The notes under the pieces were generated by a model that saw only the letters and a list, made by a program, of their open reading frames with translations, had not been told where the DNA came from and did not search any database. A program made the translations under genes and the position numbers. Shown one piece after another: positions 2,942-32,599 of a stretch of 32,606 nucleotides of DNA (position 1 is its first letter; the number at the start of each line of letters is the position of its first letter). The stretch is from Thermoplasmata archaeon (GTDB lineage Archaea > Thermoplasmatota > SW-10-69-26 > JACQPN01 > JAJPHT01): NCBI GenBank assembly GCA_034667685.1, contig JAXDQU010000056.1, forward strand, positions 1 to 32,606, given 5' to 3'.

Positions 2942-3023
2942 TCCAGCCACAGAGGACACAGAGGCCACGGAGGACGATTGGACCATCGCCGCCTCCGTGG
3001 CCTCTGTGTCCTCTGTGGCTGGA
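2942..3023. repeat. Perfect 32-bp inverted repeat built from three 9-mers (ccacagagg/acacagagg/ccacggagg)
   Basis: The arms at 2942-2973 and 2992-3023 are exact reverse complements, with an 18-nt loop. Confidence 0.95.
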
Positions 3024-3065: not shown

Positions 3066-5915
3066 GTGACCGAGTTCGACCTGCTGCTGCCCGACTGGCG
3101 CCAATATTTGGCGGGTCGCGGCATTACGCACCCCACGCGCGCGCAGGCCGCCGCGATCCCGCCGATCCACGCCGGCGAGCACACGCTGCTGCTGGCGCCC
3201 ACGGGCATGGGCAAGACCGAGAGCGCGATCCTGCCGCTCTTCGACAACCTGCTGCGCTGGAAGCAGGTCGCGCCGCACGCGCAGTGGAAGGGCAAGATCA
3301 AGCTCCTTTACGTGACGCCGCTGCGCGCGCTCAACCGCGACCTCATGGCGCGCCTCCACGAGTGGGGCAAGGCGATCGGCCTCGACGTGCGCGTGCGCCA
3401 CGGCGACACGACCCAGGGCGAGCGCGACCGGCAGAGCCGCCATCCGCCCGACGTGCTCATCACGACGCCCGAGACGCTGCAGCTCCTCTTCCTGGGCCGC
3501 CGGCTCGTGCAGGGGCTCGCGGGCGTGCGCGCGGTGGTGCTCGACGAGGTGCACGAGCTGGCCAGCGATGAGCGCGGCGCGCAGCTTGCCGTCGCGCTGG
3601 AGCGCCTGGTCGGACACGCCGGCGAGTTCCAGCGCGTCGGCCTCTCCGCCACCGTCGGGGACCCGGCCGACGTCTCCGCGTACCTGGGCGGCGTGGGCCG
3701 GGACGTGCGCGTCGTCAAGGTCCCCGTCAGCAAGCAGCTTGACCTCCAGGTCGTGAGCCCCAAGCCCACGACGCGGGACAGGCGGACGGCCGAGAAGATC
3801 ATGGCGCGCCCCGAGGCCGCGGCGTACCTGAACGCGTGCCTCGACCGCATCCGCGAGCAGAAGCAGACGCTCCTCTTCGTCAACACGCGCGAGACGGCCG
3901 AGGTCCTGGCGGCGCGCATCCGTATCCTGCGCGAGAGCGGCGCCGAAGACTTGCCCGAGATCGCGGTGCACCACGGAAGCCTCGCGCGCGACGTGCGCAT
4001 CGCAGCGGAGCAGGCCTTCAAGAGCGGCCGCGCGCGCGGGCTCATCTGCACGAGCAGCATGGAGCTTGGCATCGACATCGGCGACGCGGACCTCGTGCTC
4101 CAGATGACGAGCCCGCGCCAGGTGACGCGCCTCGTACAGCGCGTGGGCCGCGCGGGGCACCGGCACGACCTCGTGAGCAACGGCGTCGTCGTCGCGCAGG
4201 ATCCCGACGACGTCGCCGAAGCGGCGGTGATCGTGCGCGAGACGCTGGCCGAGCGCATGGAGCGGCTGCCCGGCCCCAGGAAGCCGCTCGACGTGCTGGC
4301 CAACCAGGTCGCGGCGATGGCGCTGGAGAAGCGCAAGCTGGGCGATCTGGAATGCTATCAGGTCGTCCGGCGCGCGCACCCGTTCCGCGACCTGACGCTC
4401 GACGAGTTCATGGCCGTGGTGCGCCAGCTGCACGAGCTTTGGGTCGTCTACCACGAGGCGGGCGTGATCGGCTCCAAGAAGCGCACGCGGGACTACTTCT
4501 ACGAGAACATCTCGATGATCCCGGACGAGCAGACGTACCGCGTGATCAACCTCGTGACGCGCCGCGGCGTGGCGACGTTGAACGAGGGGTTCGTGGCGTC
4601 GTTCGCGGAGCCGGGCGCGACGTTCATCGTGCAGGGGCAGCCCTGGCGCATCGCGGAGATCAGCCAGGAGGAGCTGGAGATCCGCGTCGAGCCGATCAAG
4701 GACCCGATGGGCGCCATCCCCTCGTGGGTCGGCGAGGAGATCCCGGTGCCCTGGGCGGTTGCGCAGGGCGTGGGCGCGCTCCGCAGGCAGGTGCGCGAGA
4801 TCGTGCAGTCGGCGGGCGAGGAGGCCGCGGCGCGCTGGGTCGCGCAGGAGCACCGCGCCGAGATGGACGCAGCGTGGAGCCTCGTCGAGTACGTCGAGGA
4901 GCAGGGCCAGCACGCGTTGCCCACGGACCGGGTCGTCACGCTCGACAACGGCGCGGGCGTCGTCGTGATGAACGCCTGCTTCGGCACGCAGGTCAACGAG
5001 ACGCTGGGGCGCATCCTCGCCTCGCTGCTCACCGCGCGCCTGGGCAGCAGCGTCGGCCTCGACGTCGACCCGTACCGCATCGTGCTCACGATGCCCGCGC
5101 GCGTGCCCACGAGCATGGTCAAGGAGGTGCTGCTCGCGATCGAGCCCGAGCACGTGCCCACGATCCTCGGGCTCGTGCTCCAGGGCTCGACGTACCTGAA
5201 ATATCGGCTCTTCCACACCGCGCGCAAGTTCGGCGCGCTGGCCCGCCAGGTCGACTACCAGCGCGTGAACGTCGGGCGCATGCTCGACGTGTTCAAGGGG
5301 ACCCCCTTGCACCAGGAGGCGCTGCGCGAGGTCTTCGAGGACAAGCTGGACATTCCGCGCACGCAGGAGGTCCTGCGCGCGCTGCGGGGCGGCGAGATCG
5401 CCATCGTGGAGCAAGGCCTCTCGCCCATCGCCGCCGCGGGGCTCGACCGCAAGATCGAATTGATATCTCCGGCGCGCGCCGACAAGACGCTCCTCGCCGC
5501 CATCGAGGAGCGCCTGAAGGACGAGCGCATCGTCCTGGGCTGCCTCAACTGCCGCCAGTGGCAGGTGGAGACGCGCGTCAAGCGCGCCGCGCACTCGCGC
5601 AAGTGTCCCAAGTGCGACGGCATCCTGCTGGGCGTCACGCGCCCGTGGAACGAGGCCGCGCGTCGCGTGCTGCGCGCGAGCAGGGGCGCGACGCTCGACG
5701 AGGAAGGGCGCAAGGAGATGGCGAAGCTCGCCACGAGCGCGAACCTCCTGGCGGACCACGGCGAGCGCGCGCTCCTGGCGCTCGCGGCGCGCGGCGTCGG
5801 GCCCGAGACCGCGGGGCGCATCCTCGCCAAGCAGGCCGAGGGGCACGACGCCTTCCTGCGCGCGGTGCTGGAGGCCGAGATCACGTACGCAAGGAACCGG
5901 CAGTTCTGGGATTAA
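3066..5915 (+). CDS. lhr: Lhr-family SF2 DEAD/DEAH helicase with C-terminal Cys4 motif
   Basis: Motifs APTGMGKT, VTPLRAL, ITTPET, DEVH, SAT, HHGSL, ELGIDIG and QRVGRAGH, plus Lhr-type SMIPD and IPSWVGE. C-terminal CLNC...CPKC. GTG at 3066 follows GGAGG; an alternative ATG is at 3045. Confidence 0.92.
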   Translation: MTEFDLLLPDWRQYLAGRGITHPTRAQAAAIPPIHAGEHTLLLAPTGMGKTESAILPLFDNLLRWKQVAPHAQWKGKIKLLYVTPLRALNRDLMARLHEWGKAIGLDVRVRHGDTTQGERDRQSRHPPDVLITTPETLQLLFLGRRLVQGLAGVRAVVLDEVHELASDERGAQLAVALERLVGHAGEFQRVGLSATVGDPADVSAYLGGVGRDVRVVKVPVSKQLDLQVVSPKPTTRDRRTAEKIMARPEAAAYLNACLDRIREQKQTLLFVNTRETAEVLAARIRILRESGAEDLPEIAVHHGSLARDVRIAAEQAFKSGRARGLICTSSMELGIDIGDADLVLQMTSPRQVTRLVQRVGRAGHRHDLVSNGVVVAQDPDDVAEAAVIVRETLAERMERLPGPRKPLDVLANQVAAMALEKRKLGDLECYQVVRRAHPFRDLTLDEFMAVVRQLHELWVVYHEAGVIGSKKRTRDYFYENISMIPDEQTYRVINLVTRRGVATLNEGFVASFAEPGATFIVQGQPWRIAEISQEELEIRVEPIKDPMGAIPSWVGEEIPVPWAVAQGVGALRRQVREIVQSAGEEAAARWVAQEHRAEMDAAWSLVEYVEEQGQHALPTDRVVTLDNGAGVVVMNACFGTQVNETLGRILASLLTARLGSSVGLDVDPYRIVLTMPARVPTSMVKEVLLAIEPEHVPTILGLVLQGSTYLKYRLFHTARKFGALARQVDYQRVNVGRMLDVFKGTPLHQEALREVFEDKLDIPRTQEVLRALRGGEIAIVEQGLSPIAAAGLDRKIELISPARADKTLLAAIEERLKDERIVLGCLNCRQWQVETRVKRAAHSRKCPKCDGILLGVTRPWNEAARRVLRASRGATLDEEGRKEMAKLATSANLLADHGERALLALAARGVGPETAGRILAKQAEGHDAFLRAVLEAEITYARNRQFWD

Positions 5916-6016
5916 CGAAGGGAAGAGGGGAAGAAGGGAAACGCGGGGGAAGAAGGGAAGACGAGTCCCTTCTTCCCTGGCTTCCCTTCTTCCCCGGCTT
6001 CCCTCGCTTCCCTTCG
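5916..6016. repeat. GGGAAG-type purine/pyrimidine hairpin repeat, copy 2
   Basis: A purine arm (gaagggaagaggggaagaaggg...) is followed by a complementary pyrimidine arm. Shares cgcgggggaagaaggg (5942-5957 = 3-18) and the 18-mer at 5998-6015 with copy 1. Confidence 0.85.
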
Positions 6017-13547: not shown

Positions 13548-13616
13548 CGGCGCCGCATCCAGGTCCCTCCCACTTAAACATGCCTGGGGGCGGGCAAGAG
13601 GCGCTCCGCGCGGGGA

Positions 13617-13673
13617 AAGACGAGAAGACGGGAAGACGAGACGAGAGAAGACGTCTTCCCATCTTCTCGTCTT
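13617..13673. repeat. 22-bp inverted repeat built from 8-mer units (gacgagaa/gacgggaa)
   Basis: Arms at 13617-13638 and 13652-13673 with one mismatch, downstream of the giant surface-protein gene. Confidence 0.85.
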
Positions 13674-13690
13674 CCTCGTGGCCGAAGGCC

Positions 13691-21219: not shown

Positions 21220-23699
21220 CCGCGGCGACCTCCGAGGCGGCGCGCCACCGCGGCGAGCGCCACCATCCCCACGACCAGGAGCGGCGAGGGGCCGGGCAGG
21301 AAGTTGCCCTTGGCGCTGGGCGTCGTGACCGCGGGCTTCGCCGAGAGCGCGATGACGAAGCTCGACTGCGCCCCGGCTGGATCGCCCGTCGAGGTGGCGG
21401 TGAGCGTGATCGTCGCGTCGCGCGACTGCGTGGCGAGGTTCTTCACCGTGAACGCCACGGGCCGGATCTGGCCGATGGGAACGCTGACCTGCTGCACCGA
21501 GAGCACGACGCGCCAGTCGGTGTTGTTGGCGACGCTGGGCGCGATGCTGTAGCTGAGGTTGTAGACGTCCTCGGTGTTGCCCGTGTTGTGGACGTTGAGC
21601 ACCAGCGCGCGCTCCTCGCCCGGATAGAGCTGGAGGCTGCTGTTGGTCGCGTTGAGCTCGGAGCCGAAGAGCGCATCGACGTACGCGGTGAAGCTCTTCG
21701 ACGCGACCGCCGACTCGCCCTCCTTCGCGTAGACGGTGAGGACGTTCCGGTCGCCGCTCACGGCGTCCTTGGGCGCCGTCACGACGAGGTCGACGTTGAC
21801 CGTGGCGCCCGCCGGGACGTGGATCTGGTTGCCCGGACGGAACGACTGGGGCCAGCTCGACCCGCGCGTGAGCGTCTGCGTCACGCTGAGGTTCACGATG
21901 CCCTCCGCGTTGCCGTTGTTGGTGATCGCCAGCGGGATGTCGTCCTCCGCGCCCTGCTTGAGAAGACGCTTCTCGTCGGGACCGCCCACCGAGAGCGCGA
22001 TCGTCCGCGCCAGCGTGAGGTTGATCGACGGGCACGCCACCGTGTCCGAGGACACGCCGCCGCACGAGACGGGCTTCACGTTCGCGTTCGCGTTGGCCGC
22101 GTGCACCTCGATGACGATCGGGTACGCGCCAGGCGCCTGGCCCAGGGGCGCGGTCACCGTCAGGTTCGCCACGCCCGTCTGGTCCGGATCGAGCCGCATC
22201 GGCGGCACGCTGTTGACCGTCCAGGGCGAGGTCGTGCTGGAGAGCGGCTGCTGCACGACGAAGCTGAAGTTGTCCGTCAGGCTGCCCGCATTGCGCACCG
22301 TGAGCTGGAGCGACAAGGGCGCGCCCGGCACGATCGCGCTCCCCGCGGGCGCCAGCAACGTCGCCGCCGCCGACTCGCCCACGTCGAACGCCGCGACGTT
22401 GGTCCGGCCCGCCACCACGACGCGCGTCGCGTCCTGCGTGGGGTGATAGACGCCATCGTACCAGGCGTCCGCCACGCGCACGCTGTGCACCGGAACGCCC
22501 AGGCCCGTCGCCACCGCGTCGATCGTCCAGACCGGATCCAGCCGCCCCGGCGAGAAGCCGAGCACGCTGTTCCCCGCCGCCGCCACGAGCAGACGGCCCG
22601 AGCCGTCATACGAGAGATCCGTGACCGGCGCGCCGGCGTCATAGTCGCCATCGAACTGCGCGATCAGGCTGTTGTGAAGCGCATGGAAGAAGCTGACGCG
22701 CGTCCCGCTCGCCGAAGCGAAGCGCTCGCCATCCTGCGAAAGCGCCACCGCCACCACCGCCGCCTGCCCCGGCGTCTGGCGGCTGAACACCGGCCGCACG
22801 ATGTCGTGCGAGACCGGATCCACGCGCATGTAGTAGGTGTAACCGTTGGTCGCCGCCGCCACCACGTCGCCCGCCGCGCTGAGCGCGACCTCGTTCACCG
22901 GCGACGTGTTGTACGGATGCAGATCATCGCTCGTGGCGGGCGCATCGTCCGAAGGCACCAGCACGTCCACGCCACCGGGCGTCCCGATCGCCACCAGGCC
23001 GCCATCGCGCGCCCACGCCAACGACGTCGCGTACGTCGCGCTCTGCGCCGAGTTGACCAGCGCGTAGTTCCACTTCAGATCGCCCGCGCCGCTGTACATC
23101 GTCAACATGCCCGTGCTCGTCCCCGAGCGCGACGCGAAGAGCGCATGCTGCCCATTGGGCGCGATGCTGGCATTGAGCGCCGTCACCTGGCTCGTCACCG
23201 AGCCCAGGTTGTGCTCCCAGTGCGCCGCCGACTCCGTCGAGACCCAATACGAGACCAGATCGCCCGGACCCGCCACCGCAAAGGCCGACTGCAAGCCACC
23301 CGCCGTCGTGTACGCCGTCCCGCTCACCGACTGCGTCATCGACGTCGACCCGGACGAAGGGCTGAACTGATGGCTCGCCGTCCGACACCCCTGGTTCGAC
23401 TGCCCAAAGTCGCACACGTACACGCTGGGCTGGCTCGAAAGCTGCCCCGGCGTGCTCTGGCACGTCACGCCCGGAATGCAAGTCCCCGAAGGAATCCCCG
23501 AGCCGCTCGCCGCCGGCACGCTCTCCACCGCCAACGCCACCTGGCCCGCCGGATCAAGCGCCAAATCCGAAACCTCCAACGACCCCGTCGCCTGGACCGA
23601 ATCATGGAGCGGAGGCGCAGCACCCTCCGCCCACGGAACCAGAGGCGCGGCAAGAAGAGCCGCCAAAAGCGTGACCAAGATCGCGCGGCCGTGGGGCAT
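21216..23699 (-). CDS. Surface glycoprotein paralogue: beta-propeller plus Ig-like repeats, PGF-CTERM-like tail
   Basis: Signal MPHGRAILVTLLAALLAAPLVPWAEG. Blades LAWARDGGLVA, VALSQDGERFA and LSYDGSGRLLV. Ends LPGP-hydrophobic-RRLGGRRG. Confidence 0.85.
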   Translation of the reverse strand: MPHGRAILVTLLAALLAAPLVPWAEGAAPPLHDSVQATGSLEVSDLALDPAGQVALAVESVPAASGSGIPSGTCIPGVTCQSTPGQLSSQPSVYVCDFGQSNQGCRTASHQFSPSSGSTSMTQSVSGTAYTTAGGLQSAFAVAGPGDLVSYWVSTESAAHWEHNLGSVTSQVTALNASIAPNGQHALFASRSGTSTGMLTMYSGAGDLKWNYALVNSAQSATYATSLAWARDGGLVAIGTPGGVDVLVPSDDAPATSDDLHPYNTSPVNEVALSAAGDVVAAATNGYTYYMRVDPVSHDIVRPVFSRQTPGQAAVVAVALSQDGERFASASGTRVSFFHALHNSLIAQFDGDYDAGAPVTDLSYDGSGRLLVAAAGNSVLGFSPGRLDPVWTIDAVATGLGVPVHSVRVADAWYDGVYHPTQDATRVVVAGRTNVAAFDVGESAAATLLAPAGSAIVPGAPLSLQLTVRNAGSLTDNFSFVVQQPLSSTTSPWTVNSVPPMRLDPDQTGVANLTVTAPLGQAPGAYPIVIEVHAANANANVKPVSCGGVSSDTVACPSINLTLARTIALSVGGPDEKRLLKQGAEDDIPLAITNNGNAEGIVNLSVTQTLTRGSSWPQSFRPGNQIHVPAGATVNVDLVVTAPKDAVSGDRNVLTVYAKEGESAVASKSFTAYVDALFGSELNATNSSLQLYPGEERALVLNVHNTGNTEDVYNLSYSIAPSVANNTDWRVVLSVQQVSVPIGQIRPVAFTVKNLATQSRDATITLTATSTGDPAGAQSSFVIALSAKPAVTTPSAKGNFLPGPSPLLVVGMVALAAVARRLGGRRG

Positions 23700-23760
23700 G
23701 TGGAGGCACTCTCCCGGCGGCAACGGCCGGCGGAATCCGACGCCGCGGATTCGAGTGGCC

Positions 23761-23769
23761 CTATAAAAG
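23761..23769 (-). promoter_or_regulatory. TATA box of the surface-protein operon
   Basis: The minus strand reads cttttatag about 65 nt upstream of the ATG at 23699. This is the clearest TATA in the window. Confidence 0.65.
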
Positions 23770-23806
23770 GCCTCGGAATCGCGCGCCACGCGCACGACCA
23801 CACCCA

Positions 23807-23828
23807 TTTTCCAGGGGAAAACGCGGGG
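23807..23828. promoter_or_regulatory. Palindromic operator or ORB-like motif
   Basis: ttttcc-agg-ggaaaa palindrome at 23807-23821 followed by cgcgggg. Confidence 0.4.
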
Positions 23829-23913
23829 CAACGCCCCCCTCTCCAAACCCTCCGCGAAAGCCCTTCCGGTGACGCGCTGAAAAGACGATGCCCGCTACGT
23901 CGATCCGCGAAAG

Positions 23914-24264
23914 CTAACGACCGCCAAGAGCCGCCTGCAACTCCGTCTGAAGCGCCGTCACACGCTCACGCAGACGCGACTCCTGCCGCTTCGCGCTCTC
24001 CAACCGGACCGTCATCGTCTCCTTCTGGTCCATCAACTCCGCCACCAACGCCTCCCGATCCTGCACCCGCGCCAAGATGCTCCCCACGCTCCGATACAAC
24101 GGAGCCCCCGCCGGCACCTTCGCCAACTCCTCCAACGTCCGCTCCACCTCACGGACCTGAAGCTCCACCTGCTGCCGCTGCGACACCACCACCTGCGCCT
24201 GCTGCTGCAACTCCTGAAGCTGCGCAAGCTGATTCTGGATCTGCGGCGGAAGCTGCCCGGCCAT
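23914..24264 (-). CDS. pfdB: Prefoldin beta subunit
   Basis: MAGQLPPQIQNQLAQLQELQQQ...LYRSVGSIL... coiled coil, 116 aa. Expected position in the superoperon. Confidence 0.93.
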   Translation of the reverse strand: MAGQLPPQIQNQLAQLQELQQQAQVVVSQRQQVELQVREVERTLEELAKVPAGAPLYRSVGSILARVQDREALVAELMDQKETMTVRLESAKRQESRLRERVTALQTELQAALGGR

Positions 24265-24340
24265 CAAACGCGCAAGACGAGGACGGGGGAAGAACGTTGC
24301 GGGCAGGCCGGGCGGCGCGGGGTGGGACGGGGCCGGCAGC

Positions 24341-24448
24341 CATCTGGGCCAGGTGGGCCACGTGACCCACGTGGGCCACCTGGCACACCTGGCCCACGTG
24401 GGCCAGGTGTGCCATGTGGGCCAGATGGCGCAGATGGCCCGCGTGGGT
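24341..24448. repeat. Tandem array of twelve 9-bp units (CANNTG+3 nt) containing a perfect 34-bp palindrome
   Basis: Units: catctgggc caggtgggc cacgtgacc cacgtgggc cacctggca cacctggcc cacgtgggc caggtgtgc catgtgggc cagatggcg cagatggcc cgcgtgggt. The palindrome spans 24381-24414. Confidence 0.95.
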
Positions 24449-24496
24449 GCGCCGATTCCCGGATAACATTCCGTCTCCGAGCCCCACGCCGTCGTC

Positions 24497-24808
24497 ATGC
24501 ATCTTCGTGACGAGACGCGCCGTTCCCTTCGTCGAAGCCGGCAGCGCGAGATGGTGTTCTTGGCGTTGCGGGCGCAGCCGGGGGTGACGGCGGAGGAGTT
24601 GGCGCGGGGGACGCGGGTGCGCGTGTCGCGGGTGCAGGCGATCTTGCATGGGGAGCTTCCGGAGTTTGCGCCGGGGCGTGCGCTGTTGGCGTTGGGGTTG
24701 GCGCGGGCGACGGGGACGCCGTTCGGGCTCGTGTATGAGTTGACGGCGCAGGGGGAGCACGAGGCGGATGCGGTGACGCTGTTGCGGTTGGCGGGTCGGC
24801 CGGTGTGA
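24497..24808 (+). CDS. Winged-helix DNA-binding protein, EarA/DUF1495-like
   Basis: SLRRSRQREMVFLAL...AEELARGT...VQAILHG...LLALGLA...YELTAQG follows the EarA-family pattern (SLRRS-R...E-AR...L-LGLV...Y-LT--G). 103 aa. Confidence 0.7.
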   Translation: MHLRDETRRSLRRSRQREMVFLALRAQPGVTAEELARGTRVRVSRVQAILHGELPEFAPGRALLALGLARATGTPFGLVYELTAQGEHEADAVTLLRLAGRPV

Positions 24809-24810
24809 GC

Positions 24811-25056
24811 TCAGGGGCCGGCGAGGGCGGCGGCCTTGTGGGCGGCGTCGATCCAGCGGAGGTAGGAGTTCAGGGCGGCGCGGAGGGAGGCGGGGTCGTC
24901 GGCTTCGAGGTGGATGCGGATGCCGGTTGGCTCGCGGGTGAGGTCGGCGCGCGTCTTGGGGACTTCGCTGGCGTTGGCTTCGGGGGCGAGGGCGCGGGCG
25001 ATGGCGTCCGCTGGGCCTTCGGGGAGCTCGAAGAAAAGATCGGCCGAATGGTGCAT
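24811..25056 (-). CDS. pcc1: KEOPS complex subunit Pcc1
   Basis: ARALAPE...LEADDPASLRAALNSYLRWI. ATG at 25056, 81 aa. Confidence 0.9.
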   Translation of the reverse strand: MHHSADLFFELPEGPADAIARALAPEANASEVPKTRADLTREPTGIRIHLEADDPASLRAALNSYLRWIDAAHKAAALAGP

Positions 25057-25067
25057 CCGCGCTCGCG

Positions 25068-25205
25068 TCAGCGAGAGTGGACGCGCTTGGCGATGGTGGG
25101 GCGTTCCTTGTAGAACACCTTGGAGCCGCAGTAGGGGCAGCGCATGCCGATGTTGTTGGTGTCGAACTCGACGTTGCGCTTGCACTTGCCGCAGCGGTAG
25201 TCCAT
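25068..25205 (-). CDS. rpoP: DNA-directed RNA polymerase subunit P (Rpo12)
   Basis: Not in the ORF track. Hand translation gives MDYRCGKCKRNVEFDTNNIGMRCPYCGSKVFYKERPTIAKRVHSR* (45 aa, C4 zinc ribbon). Confidence 0.95.
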   Translation of the reverse strand: MDYRCGKCKRNVEFDTNNIGMRCPYCGSKVFYKERPTIAKRVHSR

Positions 25206-25209
25206 GCCT

Positions 25210-25503
25210 TCACTCCTGGGCGGGGGCGGGCATCTTGCCCTCGGAGAGCTCGCGGAGGACGCGCTCGTTGGCGTTGTACGCGGGCGTGTGGGGCAGGTAG
25301 GCGCCGCCGGCGAACTTGTGGCCGCACTTGCGGCATTCCCAGATGCCGGTGTCCGTGCGCTTCACGCGGGGCGCGGCGCAGGCGGGGCAGGTGTGCCACG
25401 CCTTCTGGCGCGCTTCGACCTCGCGGATGCGGCGGCGGATGCTGACGCCGTAGCGGGGGCCGAAGCGACCGACGGACTTGACCTTCTTGGTGCGGAGCGA
25501 CAT
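25210..25503 (-). CDS. rpl37ae: 50S ribosomal protein L37ae (eL43)
   Basis: [12 protein letters not shown]...GIWECRKC...FAGGAY. GGAGG SD upstream. Confidence 0.97.
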
Positions 25504-25570
25504 GGGGTTCCTCCTCCGAGGATGCGGACCCTGGGCGGGTCCGGAACAGGCGTTGGCAAGTCGGCTTCCC

Positions 25571-25583
25571 TACTTAACGATTT
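25571..25583 (-). promoter_or_regulatory. Putative BRE/TATA for rpl37ae-rpoP-pcc1
   Basis: The minus strand reads aaatcgttaagta about 70 nt upstream of rpl37ae. Confidence 0.55.
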
Positions 25584-25613
25584 GGGGGGTCCCAGCCACG
25601 CGCCTGCAAGCTC

Positions 25614-25827
25614 CCGCCAACACGCGAGCGCGCTGCGGAGTCGGGCTCGTCTGTCCGCGTGTTGGCGTGTTCGCGTGTTGGCGGCCCCGTGGAACGAGCC
25701 ACACGAGGATTCCGGGTGCAGGCCCGGGGCCTCAAGGCCAAAGCGTCGAAGCCTCCGAAGACCGCCTCGGACGGGCAGTCGCGCGCAGGCGCCGCGGCGC
25801 TCCCGATGCTCGTCTTCGGAGGCTTCG
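25614..25827. repeat. Two intergenic hairpins
   Basis: 14-bp IR at 25614-25627/25671-25684 with tandem gcgtgtt(g/c) 8-mers. 16-bp IR at 25747-25762/25812-25827. Confidence 0.75.
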
Positions 25828-25853
25828 GCCTTCGGGCTTCGGGTAATCGTGGC

Positions 25854-26990
25854 TTACGGCGCCCCCGGCACCGGCGCGGGGTACGGGATCAGCTGTCCGT
25901 TGGCCATCGTCGCGGTCACGAGCGTCGCGCGCGTGCTGGCGAGGTAGCCGATGCCCGTGTTCAGGCTGGCGTCCACGAAGATGTGGGTGTTGATGCCGGC
26001 GGCCTCGCGCTCGGCGCCCACGGCGTCGCCGGTGAGCGTGTTGGAGGCGGAGCCGCTGTCGCCGGGCGTGATGGCGCCTTCCCAGATCATCGTGCTGCTC
26101 GTCCAGTAGAACGCGGTGCCGGCGCGGGGCGTGCCGTCGGTGCCGATGCCGGCGCCGTGGCCGTAGTGGACGATGCCCTGCACGAGGAAGGGGTCGGTGT
26201 TCAGGGTCGGTCCGCTGATGAGGTTGCGGCCCAGCAGGCTCGCGGCGAGGGTGGCGCCGGTGTCCTTGTACTGGCCGATGGGGCCGCCCCAGAAGCACAT
26301 GGTGGGCGAGACGAGGCCCTGGTTGGCGGTGTTGATGCCGATGAGGGCCCAGTCCTTGCCGATGCCGGCGTCGCCGGTGCTCTTGACGAACTTGCCGAAG
26401 TCCAGGAGGATCGGCACGGAGACGGCGGGCAGGCCGAAGAAGGGGCGGTCGAAGTTGCCCACGGCGGCGATGACCGTCGCGGTGTCCCCGACGTTGCCGC
26501 AGTGGCCGGCGGTGCTGATCTGATAGCTTCCGGGCGTGCCGTAGACGTGGGCCATGCTGCACAGCGAGATCGCGTCGGGAGAGAGAAGCAGGAGCCACGC
26601 GCCGGGGCGGATGCCCAGGCAGCCCGTGCCCGCGTAGGAGGCAAGGGCTGACGCGCTGACGCCCTGCGTGGTGCCGTCAGGGAAGACGGCGGTGGGCGTG
26701 TCGTAGCGCTGCGCGAGCAGGACGTCGCGCGGGGGCAGGCCCATGAGCGCGAGGTCGTCGTCGCTGAGCGTCATCTTCATCGGCGCCCAGGTGCCGGCGG
26801 GGTAGGTCGCGAGCAGGTGGTCGACGAAGTGCTGGCGAAGCTGGCACATCGCGGTGGGGTCCACGGTGAACTCGCCGACGCTGGTCAGCGTGGGGGCTTG
26901 CGTCGCGGCGAGCGAGGTCGTCGCGACGAGGGGCAGGCTCAGCGCCGCGAGCACGAGCAGCACGGCGAGGTTTCGGGTCTTGGTCTCCAA
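25854..26990 (-). CDS. Secreted chymotrypsin-like (S1) serine protease with N-terminal pro-region
   Basis: TTG start after GGAGG. Signal peptide ...LAVLLVLAALSLPLVATTSLA. Catalytic triad motifs TAGHC, KDWALI and GDSGS. Confidence 0.85.
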   Translation of the reverse strand: METKTRNLAVLLVLAALSLPLVATTSLAATQAPTLTSVGEFTVDPTAMCQLRQHFVDHLLATYPAGTWAPMKMTLSDDDLALMGLPPRDVLLAQRYDTPTAVFPDGTTQGVSASALASYAGTGCLGIRPGAWLLLLSPDAISLCSMAHVYGTPGSYQISTAGHCGNVGDTATVIAAVGNFDRPFFGLPAVSVPILLDFGKFVKSTGDAGIGKDWALIGINTANQGLVSPTMCFWGGPIGQYKDTGATLAASLLGRNLISGPTLNTDPFLVQGIVHYGHGAGIGTDGTPRAGTAFYWTSSTMIWEGAITPGDSGSASNTLTGDAVGAEREAAGINTHIFVDASLNTGIGYLASTRATLVTATMANGQLIPYPAPVPGAP

Positions 26991-28709: not shown

Positions 28710-30536
28710 TCACTCCTGTCCTCGGCCGCCGTTGCCGCGGCCGCGTCCGCCACGCCGTCCGCGCCCGCCGCGGCGGCGATCGCCGCCACCGTCCGAGTCG
28801 CGGCGCGCGGGGCGCTCGTCTTCCTCGTCCTCGTCGCTGGCCGCGAATCGTCGCGGCGAAGACGAACCCGAAGGCTCGTCGGAAGCCGCGAATCGTCGCG
28901 GCGGAGGCGAGCCCGCAGGCTCGTCCGTGAAACGGCGGGGCGCGGGCTTGCGAGGAGCATCCGTCTCCTCGTCGTCATCGAAGCGGGAGGGGCGGCGCGC
29001 GGCGGGGCGCGGCGCCTCGTCCTCCTCGTCGAAGCGTGAGATGCGGGGCGGGGCGCGGCGGGGCGCCTCCCCCTCGTCGGCCGCGAAGCGTCGCGGCGGG
29101 GGCGAGCCCGCGGCCTCGTCCGAGAAGCGGGGGCGCGGCGGCGCGCGCTCCTCGCGGCGCGGAGGGCGGTCGCCGCGCTCTTCCTCGAAGCGGCGCGGGC
29201 GCTCCTCGCGGCCGCGGGGCTCCTCGAACCGCCGCGGAGGACGCTCGCTGCGCTCCTCCTCAAAGCGGCGAGGCGGCGCGCGCTCCTCGCGGCGCGCCCG
29301 GCTGAACGGCTCGGCCTCGCCTTCGCCCCGGCTGCGGGGCTCCTCGAAGCGGCGCGCGGGGCGCTCCTCCTCGAAGCGGCGGGGCGGGGCGCCCCGGCCG
29401 AACGATTCGGCCTCGCCCTCGGCGGAGCGCCGACGGGGCTCCTCGCGGCGCGGCTCGTCGCGGCGGGCGGCGCGCTCCTCGTGGCCGTGGTGGCGCTCGC
29501 CGGCGCGGCGCTCGGAGTGGTGGCGCTCGTGGCGCACCTCCCCGCGGGGCCCGCGGCGCTCCTCCAGGTCCGCGTCGGCGGTGTCGTCCTCGGCGGCGCG
29601 CTGGTAACGGTGCTTCTCGGCCTCGCTGCGGCCGGCGCGGGGGCGCTCCTCGCGCGTCTCGCGGCGCGGCGGGCCCCGGCCGAACGATTCGGCCTCGCCC
29701 TCGGCGGAACGCCTGCGGGGCTCGGCGCGCGCGGGGGCTTCCTCCTCCTCGGCGAGGCGGCTGGGACGCTCGCGGCGTTCCGGACGCTCGCGGCGCTCGC
29801 GCGTGATCTCGCGGTCCTCCTCGGCTTCGGCCTCGACCTCGCTGGACTGCTTGTGGGTGCGCTGCGCGCTGGGGCGCTTCTCCTCGAGCCAGGCCTTCAT
29901 GCGGTCCGTGAGCCCGGTCGTGTGCGCCTCGGCCTCGATCTTCTGGAGGCCCTCGAGCGCGAGCTTGACGTCGTCGGCCTCGCCGTCGAGCCAGATCTTG
30001 CCGTTCTGCCCAACGAAGATGCGCACGTTGGTGGCGTCCTTCAGCATGGTGATCATGCTGCCCTGGCGCCCGACGATGCGCGGGACCTTGGTGGGCGCGA
30101 CCTCGAAGATGAGGCCGCCGGTGAGCTTGCGGCACTGGCGGTCCTTCATCGAGACCTGCGCCTTCTTCATCTCGTCCACGTGGACGATCTTGAGAAGGAC
30201 GGTGTCGCCCACGGCGAGGTACTTCGACGTCTCGCCGAACTCGACGCGCCAGGGCACGTCGTTGACGTGCATGCCGACGTCGTTGGCGGCGCCGATGTTG
30301 ATGTACCAGTTGGAGGGGCCGGTCTCGGCCACGGTGCCGATGACCATGTCGCCGCGGAAGGGCTCGTAGCGGCCCGAGAGGCCGATGACGTTCACGCGGT
30401 CGCCACGGACCGCCTTGACGCCCAGCCGGAGGGCGTAGATGTCGCGGCCCTCCACGTAGGTGTTCTGGCCCGGCTGCATCTCTCCGGTGCTTCCGAGGCG
30501 CTCGCCCGGGACCACGACTTGGCGCGTATCGCTCAT
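28710..30536 (-). CDS. rrp4: Exosome RNA-binding cap subunit Rrp4 with a C-terminal low-complexity extension of about 390 aa
   Basis: Residues 1-221 carry the Rrp4 N-domain, S1 and KH features (VVPGERL, YEPFRGDMVIG, KVPRIVGRQGSMI, VGQNGKIW, EAHTTGLTDR). They are followed in frame by an R/E/P-rich tail ending in RGG repeats. Confidence 0.93.
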   Translation of the reverse strand: MSDTRQVVVPGERLGSTGEMQPGQNTYVEGRDIYALRLGVKAVRGDRVNVIGLSGRYEPFRGDMVIGTVAETGPSNWYINIGAANDVGMHVNDVPWRVEFGETSKYLAVGDTVLLKIVHVDEMKKAQVSMKDRQCRKLTGGLIFEVAPTKVPRIVGRQGSMITMLKDATNVRIFVGQNGKIWLDGEADDVKLALEGLQKIEAEAHTTGLTDRMKAWLEEKRPSAQRTHKQSSEVEAEAEEDREITRERRERPERRERPSRLAEEEEAPARAEPRRRSAEGEAESFGRGPPRRETREERPRAGRSEAEKHRYQRAAEDDTADADLEERRGPRGEVRHERHHSERRAGERHHGHEERAARRDEPRREEPRRRSAEGEAESFGRGAPPRRFEEERPARRFEEPRSRGEGEAEPFSRARREERAPPRRFEEERSERPPRRFEEPRGREERPRRFEEERGDRPPRREERAPPRPRFSDEAAGSPPPRRFAADEGEAPRRAPPRISRFDEEDEAPRPAARRPSRFDDDEETDAPRKPAPRRFTDEPAGSPPPRRFAASDEPSGSSSPRRFAASDEDEEDERPARRDSDGGGDRRRGGRGRRGGRGRGNGGRGQE

Positions 30537-32541: not shown

Positions 32542-32599
32542 GGGAGGGAAGCGGGGGAAAGAAGGGAAGAGGGGAAGAAGGGAAGCGAGGGAAGAAGGG
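32542..32599. repeat. GGGAAG-type repeat, copy 3 (left arm only, truncated by window end)
   Basis: gaagggaagcgagggaag at 32577-32594 is the reverse complement of 65-82 and 5998-6015. Confidence 0.85.

Follow-up and report, generated by a model that had tools for sequence, protein, structure and literature searches.

A phased CANNTG box array beside an EarA-like winged-helix gene of a Thermoplasmata archaeon, and the two-sided loss of cytosine around it

What does a phased array of hexamers do between the divergent starts of a prefoldin gene and a small winged-helix gene, and why does the strand composition of the DNA flip at this point? We examined these questions in the window, the whole stretch of 32,606 nucleotides analysed here, which is contig C56 (JAXDQU010000056.1) of a Thermoplasmata archaeon with a genome of 3.48 Mb and 71% G+C. 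A close strain of the organism occurs in an independent soil run (X3). The skewed flanks of the array are referred to as its halo, and the features of the locus are as follows.

22300 to 24340, minus strand: left halo, with the minus strand depleted in C; four-fold skew residuals of -1.06, -0.58, -0.54 and -0.40 going outward; outer limit approximate
23914 to 24264, minus strand: pfdB (prefoldin beta), the divergent neighbour, with 7% C at four-fold sites (gene call, skew)
24341 to 24448, no strand: array of 11 CANNTG boxes and 1 degenerate box with a 9-bp period, the likely (putative) operator of the adjoining EarA-like protein
24381 to 24414, no strand: perfect 34-bp palindrome, the dyad of the box array (sequence)
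24449 to 26500, plus strand: right halo, with the plus strand depleted in C; four-fold skew residuals of +1.02, +0.48, -0.10 and +0.39 going outward; outer limit approximate
24450 to 24467, plus strand: promoter-class motif of the G(C/T)GAYNCCGGANAA type, likely an extended BRE, upstream of the winged-helix gene (conservation)
24497 to 24808, plus strand: EarA-like winged-helix gene of 103 aa, the most skewed gene of the genome (PF07381, AlphaFold, Atlas; residual +1.12)
24811 to 25503, minus strand: pcc1, rpoP and rpl37Ae of the superoperon, pointing toward the cassette; pcc1 with mirror-image skew (gene call, skew)

The array was found to hold 11 exact CANNTG hexamers in a strict 9-bp register (24341-24436), with a degenerate twelfth unit, CGCGTG, at 24440 and the perfect palindrome inside the run of boxes. 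First-order Markov simulations of the window (100 in all) yielded a longest phased run of 1 in 83 cases and of 2 in 17, compared to the observed 11. The array strand was calculated to fold at -60.5 kcal/mol (z = -7.6), and none of 200 shuffled sequences was equally stable. The boxes, degenerate copy and palindrome of the original prediction were thus all verified by position, simulation and folding. Its strict 9-bp register was real at this locus and proved specific to this genome, as the strict four-box 9-bp pattern was found in only 1 of 15 genomes of the order and the relatives use 10-12 bp. Because contigs of run X3, from a separate study, carry the array with flanks that are 98-99% identical, the array is not an assembly artefact; compared to the present copy, the X3 copy differs at middle and spacer bases and at one T, with gaps at 19 positions. 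Longer perfect palindromes of other repeat families, up to 70 bp, are present in the genome, so the 34-bp palindrome is unremarkable here by itself. A coding tripeptide repeat was considered and rejected, with the 194-aa open reading frame across the array read as a shadow and the orthologues starting at 24264. No known RNA family or tRNA was found at the array.

We then characterized the adjoining gene and the site that it occupies. The 103-aa protein matched Pfam family PF07381 at 31.7 bits (curated cut-off 22), and its AlphaFold model (pLDDT 97) comprised one winged-helix domain of helices and a beta-hairpin wing. The nearest Atlas structure was the EarA cluster (TM 0.76), no NCBIfam family was found for the protein, and a word-index search matched only the protein itself. 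The placement of the array between the divergent starts of pfdB (minus strand) and the EarA-like gene (plus strand) was borne out by the gene coordinates. It was noted that the conserved order rpl37Ae-rpoP-pcc1-pfdB is broken here by the cassette, and that the site is empty in three family-level relatives. Among members of the genus, the gene stood at the pcc1-pfdB site in opposite orientations in two and was absent from one. The gene was present with different arrays in G003 and in a metagenome locus (L119), it was inverted and lay between repeats in G001, and G002 carried only a short array. Across the family, EarA-like genes occurred at 1-6 per genome and at varying sites in all nine genomes, and none was found in six other genomes of the order. 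The small regulator cassette thus occupies different sites and orientations in related genomes, and the idea that array, winged-helix gene and skew flip form a module inserted into the superoperon held up as a recurrent one between pcc1 and pfdB. Contigs of an RNA run (X10) span rpoP and rpl37Ae and not the array or the winged-helix gene; they carry neither strand nor level.

A central question is whether the boxes belong to the protein. Around 34 EarA-like genes from the family and class, CA..TG came out ahead of every other spaced dinucleotide-pair pattern tested (5.6-fold). At least three CANNTG boxes were present at 18 of these 34 loci, compared to 8 of 175 other genes, with boxes on both sides at 7; the other 16 loci had fewer than three. 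These counts omit G008:C191 (ArsR-like, a weak match), the matches in G017, G018 and G019, and a second G020 gene. The co-occurrence of CANNTG arrays with this winged-helix family, and with skew flips, was therefore recovered in relatives as had been proposed. The second EarA-like paralogue of the present genome (C124) had four to five boxes on each side. Several cassettes with strong flips carried other boxes, of the GTGCAC, CCCGGG and CACGGG types. We also found two further copies of the array in the genome, at C35:12990-13095 and C79:68463-68568, neither of which adjoins an EarA-like gene.

In a distant low-GC family, EarA-like genes were present in 36 of 36 genomes, and CA..TG was not enriched near them (0.98-fold). 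At least two YAYNTR boxes stood just upstream of the TATA element in 9 of 18 EarA-like genes of that family compared to 48 of 836 background windows, a count that omits 5 of 23 loci with no recognised TATA and is to be read with the pattern having been chosen after viewing these sequences and the loci being partly orthologous. The EarA site is given as TACATA in the available part of its description (bioRxiv 10.1101/2023.06.15.545098), which the YAYNTR pattern includes, and EarA sites are placed directly upstream of the BRE by the accessible text of a second paper (PMC5512572). In the window, the boxes stop shortly before the conserved promoter-class motif, which is common to most EarA-like cassettes and to many unrelated promoters with no flip. 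Based on the box enrichment, the coverage of TACATA by YAYNTR and the position just upstream of the likely BRE, the EarA-like protein probably binds the array boxes as its cognate sites. The suggested role as an autoregulatory operator fits the geometry, with boxes just upstream of the promoter motif of the gene itself.

The locus resembles the EarA system of Methanococcus maripaludis and the Thermococcales (PF07381) in Pfam family, fold, fit to YAYNTR and repeated 6-bp boxes, here putative binding sites just upstream of a presumptive BRE. The two differ in that EarA boxes number 1-4 and precede archaellin genes, whereas 11 precede the regulator's own gene here, and in that the present family has several paralogues per genome at changing sites together with gene-less copies. 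A halo is likewise a feature of the present locus and is not described in those parts of the EarA literature that were available. Among nine archaellin-family genes, five could be counted over 300 bp upstream and had 0 or 1 CANNTG, and three of the other four lay at contig ends; from these sequences, the EarA-like protein does not look like a controller of the archaellin operon.

We sought to measure the skew flip while removing the effect of coding strand. D was defined as the right minus left difference over 1 kb at four-fold third positions, relative to genome codon usage and oriented to the plus strand, with gene calls from our own model. The window flip ranked second in the genome by total G+T versus A+C and first at gene-strand-corrected four-fold sites (D = 1.87; genome sd 0.165), confirming the flip of the original prediction as the strongest at synonymous sites in this genome. 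The C35 and C79 arrays ranked fourth and fifth by D, and genome-wide there were 14 sites with D > 0.8 and one with D < -0.8. When the edges of 1655 intergenic gaps were compared, the window gap ranked first and the C35 gap third, with the wide C79 gap outside the top 12. A coding-strand artefact was rejected, as the flip was stronger at four-fold sites after gene-strand correction and mean D by neighbour orientation ranged from -0.003 to 0.038. No genes of the genome are more skewed than the winged-helix gene and pfdB, both of which were missed by an initial codon-based gene caller.

The halo is mainly a loss of C from whichever strand has its 5' end toward the array; it is seen on both sides and in genes of either direction. 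Outward genes near the three arrays had four-fold C of 0.24 compared to 0.56 expected and G of 0.68 compared to 0.41, and inward genes showed the mirror-image base change. Near the same arrays, T-ending NNY codons reached 0.17 versus 0.04, A-ending NNR codons of inward-pointing genes reached 0.53 versus 0.06, and TTG made up 20 of 32 Leu codons compared to 0.06 genome-wide; no sequence context of the C loss stood out. In a decay curve pooled from the three arrays and nine sites selected by their flips, the excess was 0.67 (outward genes) and 0.38 (inward genes) in the first 500 bp and 0.09 and 0.08 at 2-3 kb. Overall, outward-pointing genes were more skewed than inward-pointing genes (about 0.3 versus 0.15), the halo was of similar size on the upstream (0.20) and downstream (0.16) sides of the cassette promoter, and its decay ran smoothly across gene boundaries. 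Raised present-day divergence from X3 was not evident in the halo (about 1-2% throughout).

We assessed the same measure in relatives. Of 20 measurable EarA-like loci, which come from related genomes and are not independent, 19 had a positive D and nine a D above 0.4; none of 59 control gaps exceeded that level (mean -0.02, sd 0.13). A locus was measurable if it had enough sites on both sides, and 10 of 30 were left out. The sole exception to a positive D was an array-less paralogue (-0.04 and -0.16). In G003, gatB, a small gene and ribokinase follow the C35 order with no array, and the skew is flat; paired four-fold differences against these array-less orthologues ran in the predicted direction by 61:8 in gatB and 57:16 in ribokinase. 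Beside the C79 array the corresponding ratio was 94:30, also in the predicted direction, and most other orthologue pairs were near balance. Four-fold C in pfdB ranged from 0.07 to 0.36 at the five loci where an element adjoins the gene, compared to 0.45-0.76 in ten without one, the latter including the unskewed pfdB of G004, which lies about 1 kb from a cassette.

Gene-less arrays behaved differently. Of 40 picked by pattern in relatives, 11 were omitted with too few sites on both sides, and the remaining 29 had a mean D of 0.06, with 19 positive, three above 0.4 and one below -0.4. Box number did not predict D at EarA-like loci (rho 0.16, p 0.49) or at gene-less arrays. Because of this low mean and the lack of prediction by box number, the array is not sufficient for a halo. 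Only gene-less arrays with at least seven boxes leaned positive, at 11 of 13 sides and by 0.20 on average, two being the same sequence, and the age and occupancy of an array probably matter. In the distant low-GC family the halo was faint (0.08 versus 0.00).

Other kinds of sites were screened for comparable flips. Ordinary divergent gene heads had a mean of 0.045, with none of 821 above 0.6, and no halo was found at the four cdc6 loci. A generic scan for phased hexamers recovered no other class of intergenic array with a strong flip, and none of 76 measurable 9-bp CANNTG repeats of bacterial genomes and viral contigs, many of which are coding direct repeats, had a flip above 0.25. The promoter motif was rejected as the cause, with most of its top 70 matches showing no flip. 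At 48 tRNA genes there was a weak outward-strand G+T excess on both sides (0.09 downstream, 0.12 upstream), which was strongest at the tRNA-Gln gene at C79:103423.

It was also noted that a second family of small orphan genes lies at skew flips. Its two members in this genome (C65:1230-1556 and C110:3977-4267; L256 and L257) have relatives at L386-L393, are 43% alike over 53 residues, and matched no Pfam or NCBIfam family. Each gene stands behind its own repeat array, of the CGTACG, GAACGTTC or GGTACC type. D was 0.94 and 0.91 here and 0.14-0.60 at six of six two-sided congener loci. By eye, the products look like ribbon-helix-helix proteins. Degenerate 9-bp GC-rich arrays with a common CGCTCTAGAG word were encountered at C106:96650-96760, C106:104860-104980 and C85:31180-31270; the flips there ranked second and in the top 20, with no adjoining EarA-like gene. 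Two further flips, at C85:39927-40990 and C111:12500-12980, fall at sites that are occupied by an EarA-like cassette in G003. In the present genome there is a low-GC insert at one of them and a duplicated end of a gene, with CAGGTG-type repeats, at the other, and they are possibly footprints of former cassettes or common insertion hot spots.

The sign of the halo would require a process that starts at the site, moves outward and exposes the strand whose 5' end faces the site, because a roadblock or ordinary break resection would be expected to give the opposite sign. Our preferred explanation, held tentatively and at somewhat less than an even chance, is that the array is a multi-site operator of the EarA-like protein within a mobile cassette and that the halo was left by outward transcription from the occupied array. 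Protein dimers would bind the CANNTG boxes cooperatively and recruit the transcription machinery, as EarA does by way of TFB, and transcription from the dyad-symmetric array would run both ways, through sense as well as antisense DNA. Bubbles or R-loops would keep the displaced non-template strand single-stranded, its cytosines would deaminate, and with the genome under a push toward G+C the lost C positions would mostly become G. Copies without a gene would be occupied in trans and would gain a halo only when long and old. Outward transcription would be in keeping with a geometry of the EarA type, with the reach of 1-2 kb, with the excess at tRNA genes and with the greater skew of genes that point outward. 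The halo at ordinary promoters is close to nil (the mean of 0.045 above), so this explanation needs unusually persistent antisense transcription. Against it stand the weak gene-less arrays, the independence of D from box number, the cassettes with non-CANNTG boxes, the unskewed G004 pfdB and the faint distant halo. Ribbon-helix-helix proteins are usually repressors, and the halos of the orphan genes count against it as well if their products belong to that class.

Mammalian transcription starts offer a parallel. In the accessible part of one study (PMC2927911), they and CpG islands show a local asymmetry in which C-to-T changes are in excess on the outward strand within the first 1-2 kb, with a sign that matches the halo; some asymmetries reverse upstream, and transcription and replication are both proposed as causes, as they are here. 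The present case differs from what that part describes in lying in an archaeon and inside coding genes, in being far stronger, and in having a two-sided C loss tied to the boxes of one protein family and not to promoters at large.

The array had also been considered as an atypical origin. A conventional origin does not agree with the results, as there is no AT-rich stretch, the skew is gone by 2-3 kb and the orc1/ORB locus has no such flip. With an ORB consensus and at most three mismatches allowed, there were three matches in the genome, none on the window's contig, and all four Cdc6_C matches were on other contigs. An ORB-like box and an AT-richer stretch lie upstream of the main orc1/cdc6 gene at C64:10977 (upstream of L061), which is the probable canonical origin; ORB-like boxes by the same consensus were seen in three of seven relatives. 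Over 1 kb at the orc1 locus, D was -0.08, +0.11, -0.34, +0.17, +0.35 and -0.33 in six genomes, an inconsistent flip, and in the present genome the C64 locus had a broad and slightly negative skew change (-0.18 over 10 kb).

A short-range variant of this idea fares better, and we regard it as possible but doubtful. The array would be a non-canonical replication start that the winged-helix protein marks and where helicases are loaded, with forks running outward for usually 1-3 kb and the lagging-strand template exposed on each side. The two-sidedness of the halo, its near equality about the cassette promoter and its smooth passage over gene boundaries and genes of either direction are in keeping with such forks. 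The sign matches as well, since the skew at bacterial origins has the sign of the halo. Normal forks would nevertheless give long-range skew, the orc1 locus with its ORB-like box lacks a consistent flip, and the lowest GC of any 60-bp stretch of the intergenic gap is 0.65 compared to 0.48 at the ORB locus. Single-protein queries of viral contigs, plasmids and phages, sensitive to close relatives only, returned no relative of the protein. Repeated boxes beside a winged-helix gene recall WhiP/oriC3 of Sulfolobus, as described in the available portion of PMC3607249, and iteron origins, which share the origin-type skew sign; compared to that description, the present protein has a single small winged-helix domain (103 aa) where WhiP is predicted to have two, there are no AT-rich repeats or unwinding stretch, and the skew fades in 2-3 kb. 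Third-position skew at the Haloferax origin is, in the accessible text of PMC12999951, opposite in sign to that of bacteria, so skew sign alone is a weak guide in archaea. More speculatively, and again with only a modest chance of being right, EarA-like proteins and their arrays would be minimal, mobile, Orc1-independent start sites from which DNA is opened outward for 1-3 kb. Each genome would carry about a dozen of these sites, used by small DNA-binding proteins from at least two unrelated families. As strand-specific mutators, the sites would reshape codon usage in the essential genes beside them, and they may start replication in the lineage. Local skew flips are not, as a caution, by themselves origins.

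Repeated nicking at cassette sites, by an element-moving enzyme or at folded hairpins, seems unlikely to be the cause. Strand displacement primed at the nicks, or 3'-5' excision, would then expose or resynthesise the outward strand over 1-2 kb. Such a process suits an array that folds strongly, varies between strains and turns over between species, and cassettes that switch site and orientation; the C85 and C111 flips at sites with a cassette in G003 also agree with it. However, no halo accompanied the hairpin families with the most copies in the genome (36-193 loci each; mean D between -0.03 and +0.08), the three arrays had neither a nuclease nor a recombinase gene beside them, and ordinary 5'-3' resection at a double-strand break would be expected to give the opposite sign. 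A cruciform, as had been suggested, is likewise disfavoured as the cause by the hundreds of other hairpin repeats with no flip. The window itself contains foldback repeats of other families (33-80, 2942-3023, 5914-6013, 13600-13690, 25652-25750 and 32544-32599), which have tens to about 190 genome copies each and no skew flip.

We consider it very unlikely that the array is another REP-like foldback repeat with no cognate protein, linked to the winged-helix gene and the skew only incidentally. The genome does hold many palindromic repeat families, and short gene-less arrays have no halo. The box pattern with 3-5 bp spacers was found in 7 of 15 genomes of the order, with 88 and 109 matches in the congeners G001 and G004, mostly away from EarA-like genes. 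Set against this are the enrichment beside EarA-like genes in two distant lineages, the position next to a likely BRE, the flips at 19 of 20 loci and the comparison of array-present with array-absent orthologues. REP/REPIN-RAYT systems, so far as the partial accounts at hand describe them, are alike in their dispersed palindromic copies (three in the present genome), some flanking a partner gene, and differ in that the flanked gene here encodes a regulator-type winged helix and not an HUH transposase, and in that copies are few here. A centromere-like site, on which the protein would polymerise as AspA does for segregation of chromosome copies, is highly improbable: AspA, a dimeric winged-helix protein, binds to a palindrome that lies upstream of the AspA gene and spreads (PMC5120986, available part), a likeness in protein size, fold and site placement, but the profile match (E 0.12 over about 30 residues) is weak and not significant, pfdB and pcc1 rather than parA or parB adjoin the cassette, unlike the pNOB8 arrangement in that source, and binding and spreading alone would be expected to leave no strand-specific mutation.

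A literature search, mostly without subscription papers or supplements, found nothing on EarA-like cassettes with box arrays and nothing on short-range two-sided C loss at prokaryotic regulator sites. The cassette would extend EarA-type regulation and suggests that the EarA family also acts outside the control of archaella; the surprise lies in the halo. In a housekeeping gene, silent-site C on one strand drops from about 55% to 7%; the effect extends over 2 kb in each direction and is confined to the carrier lineages. Such a halo would show, from sequence alone, which DNA of an uncultured archaeon is kept single-stranded, and halos hide genes from codon-based gene finders.

Two minor observations were made along the way. 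A C-terminal extension of about 370 residues, repetitive and of low complexity, is present in the Rrp4 exosome subunit of the window (28710-30536). Downstream of gatB, about 90 bp of non-coding sequence at C35:13270-13360 (L070) had no Rfam match and is nearly identical to its G003 counterpart (L240) with diverged flanks, and this conserved segment is a candidate small RNA.
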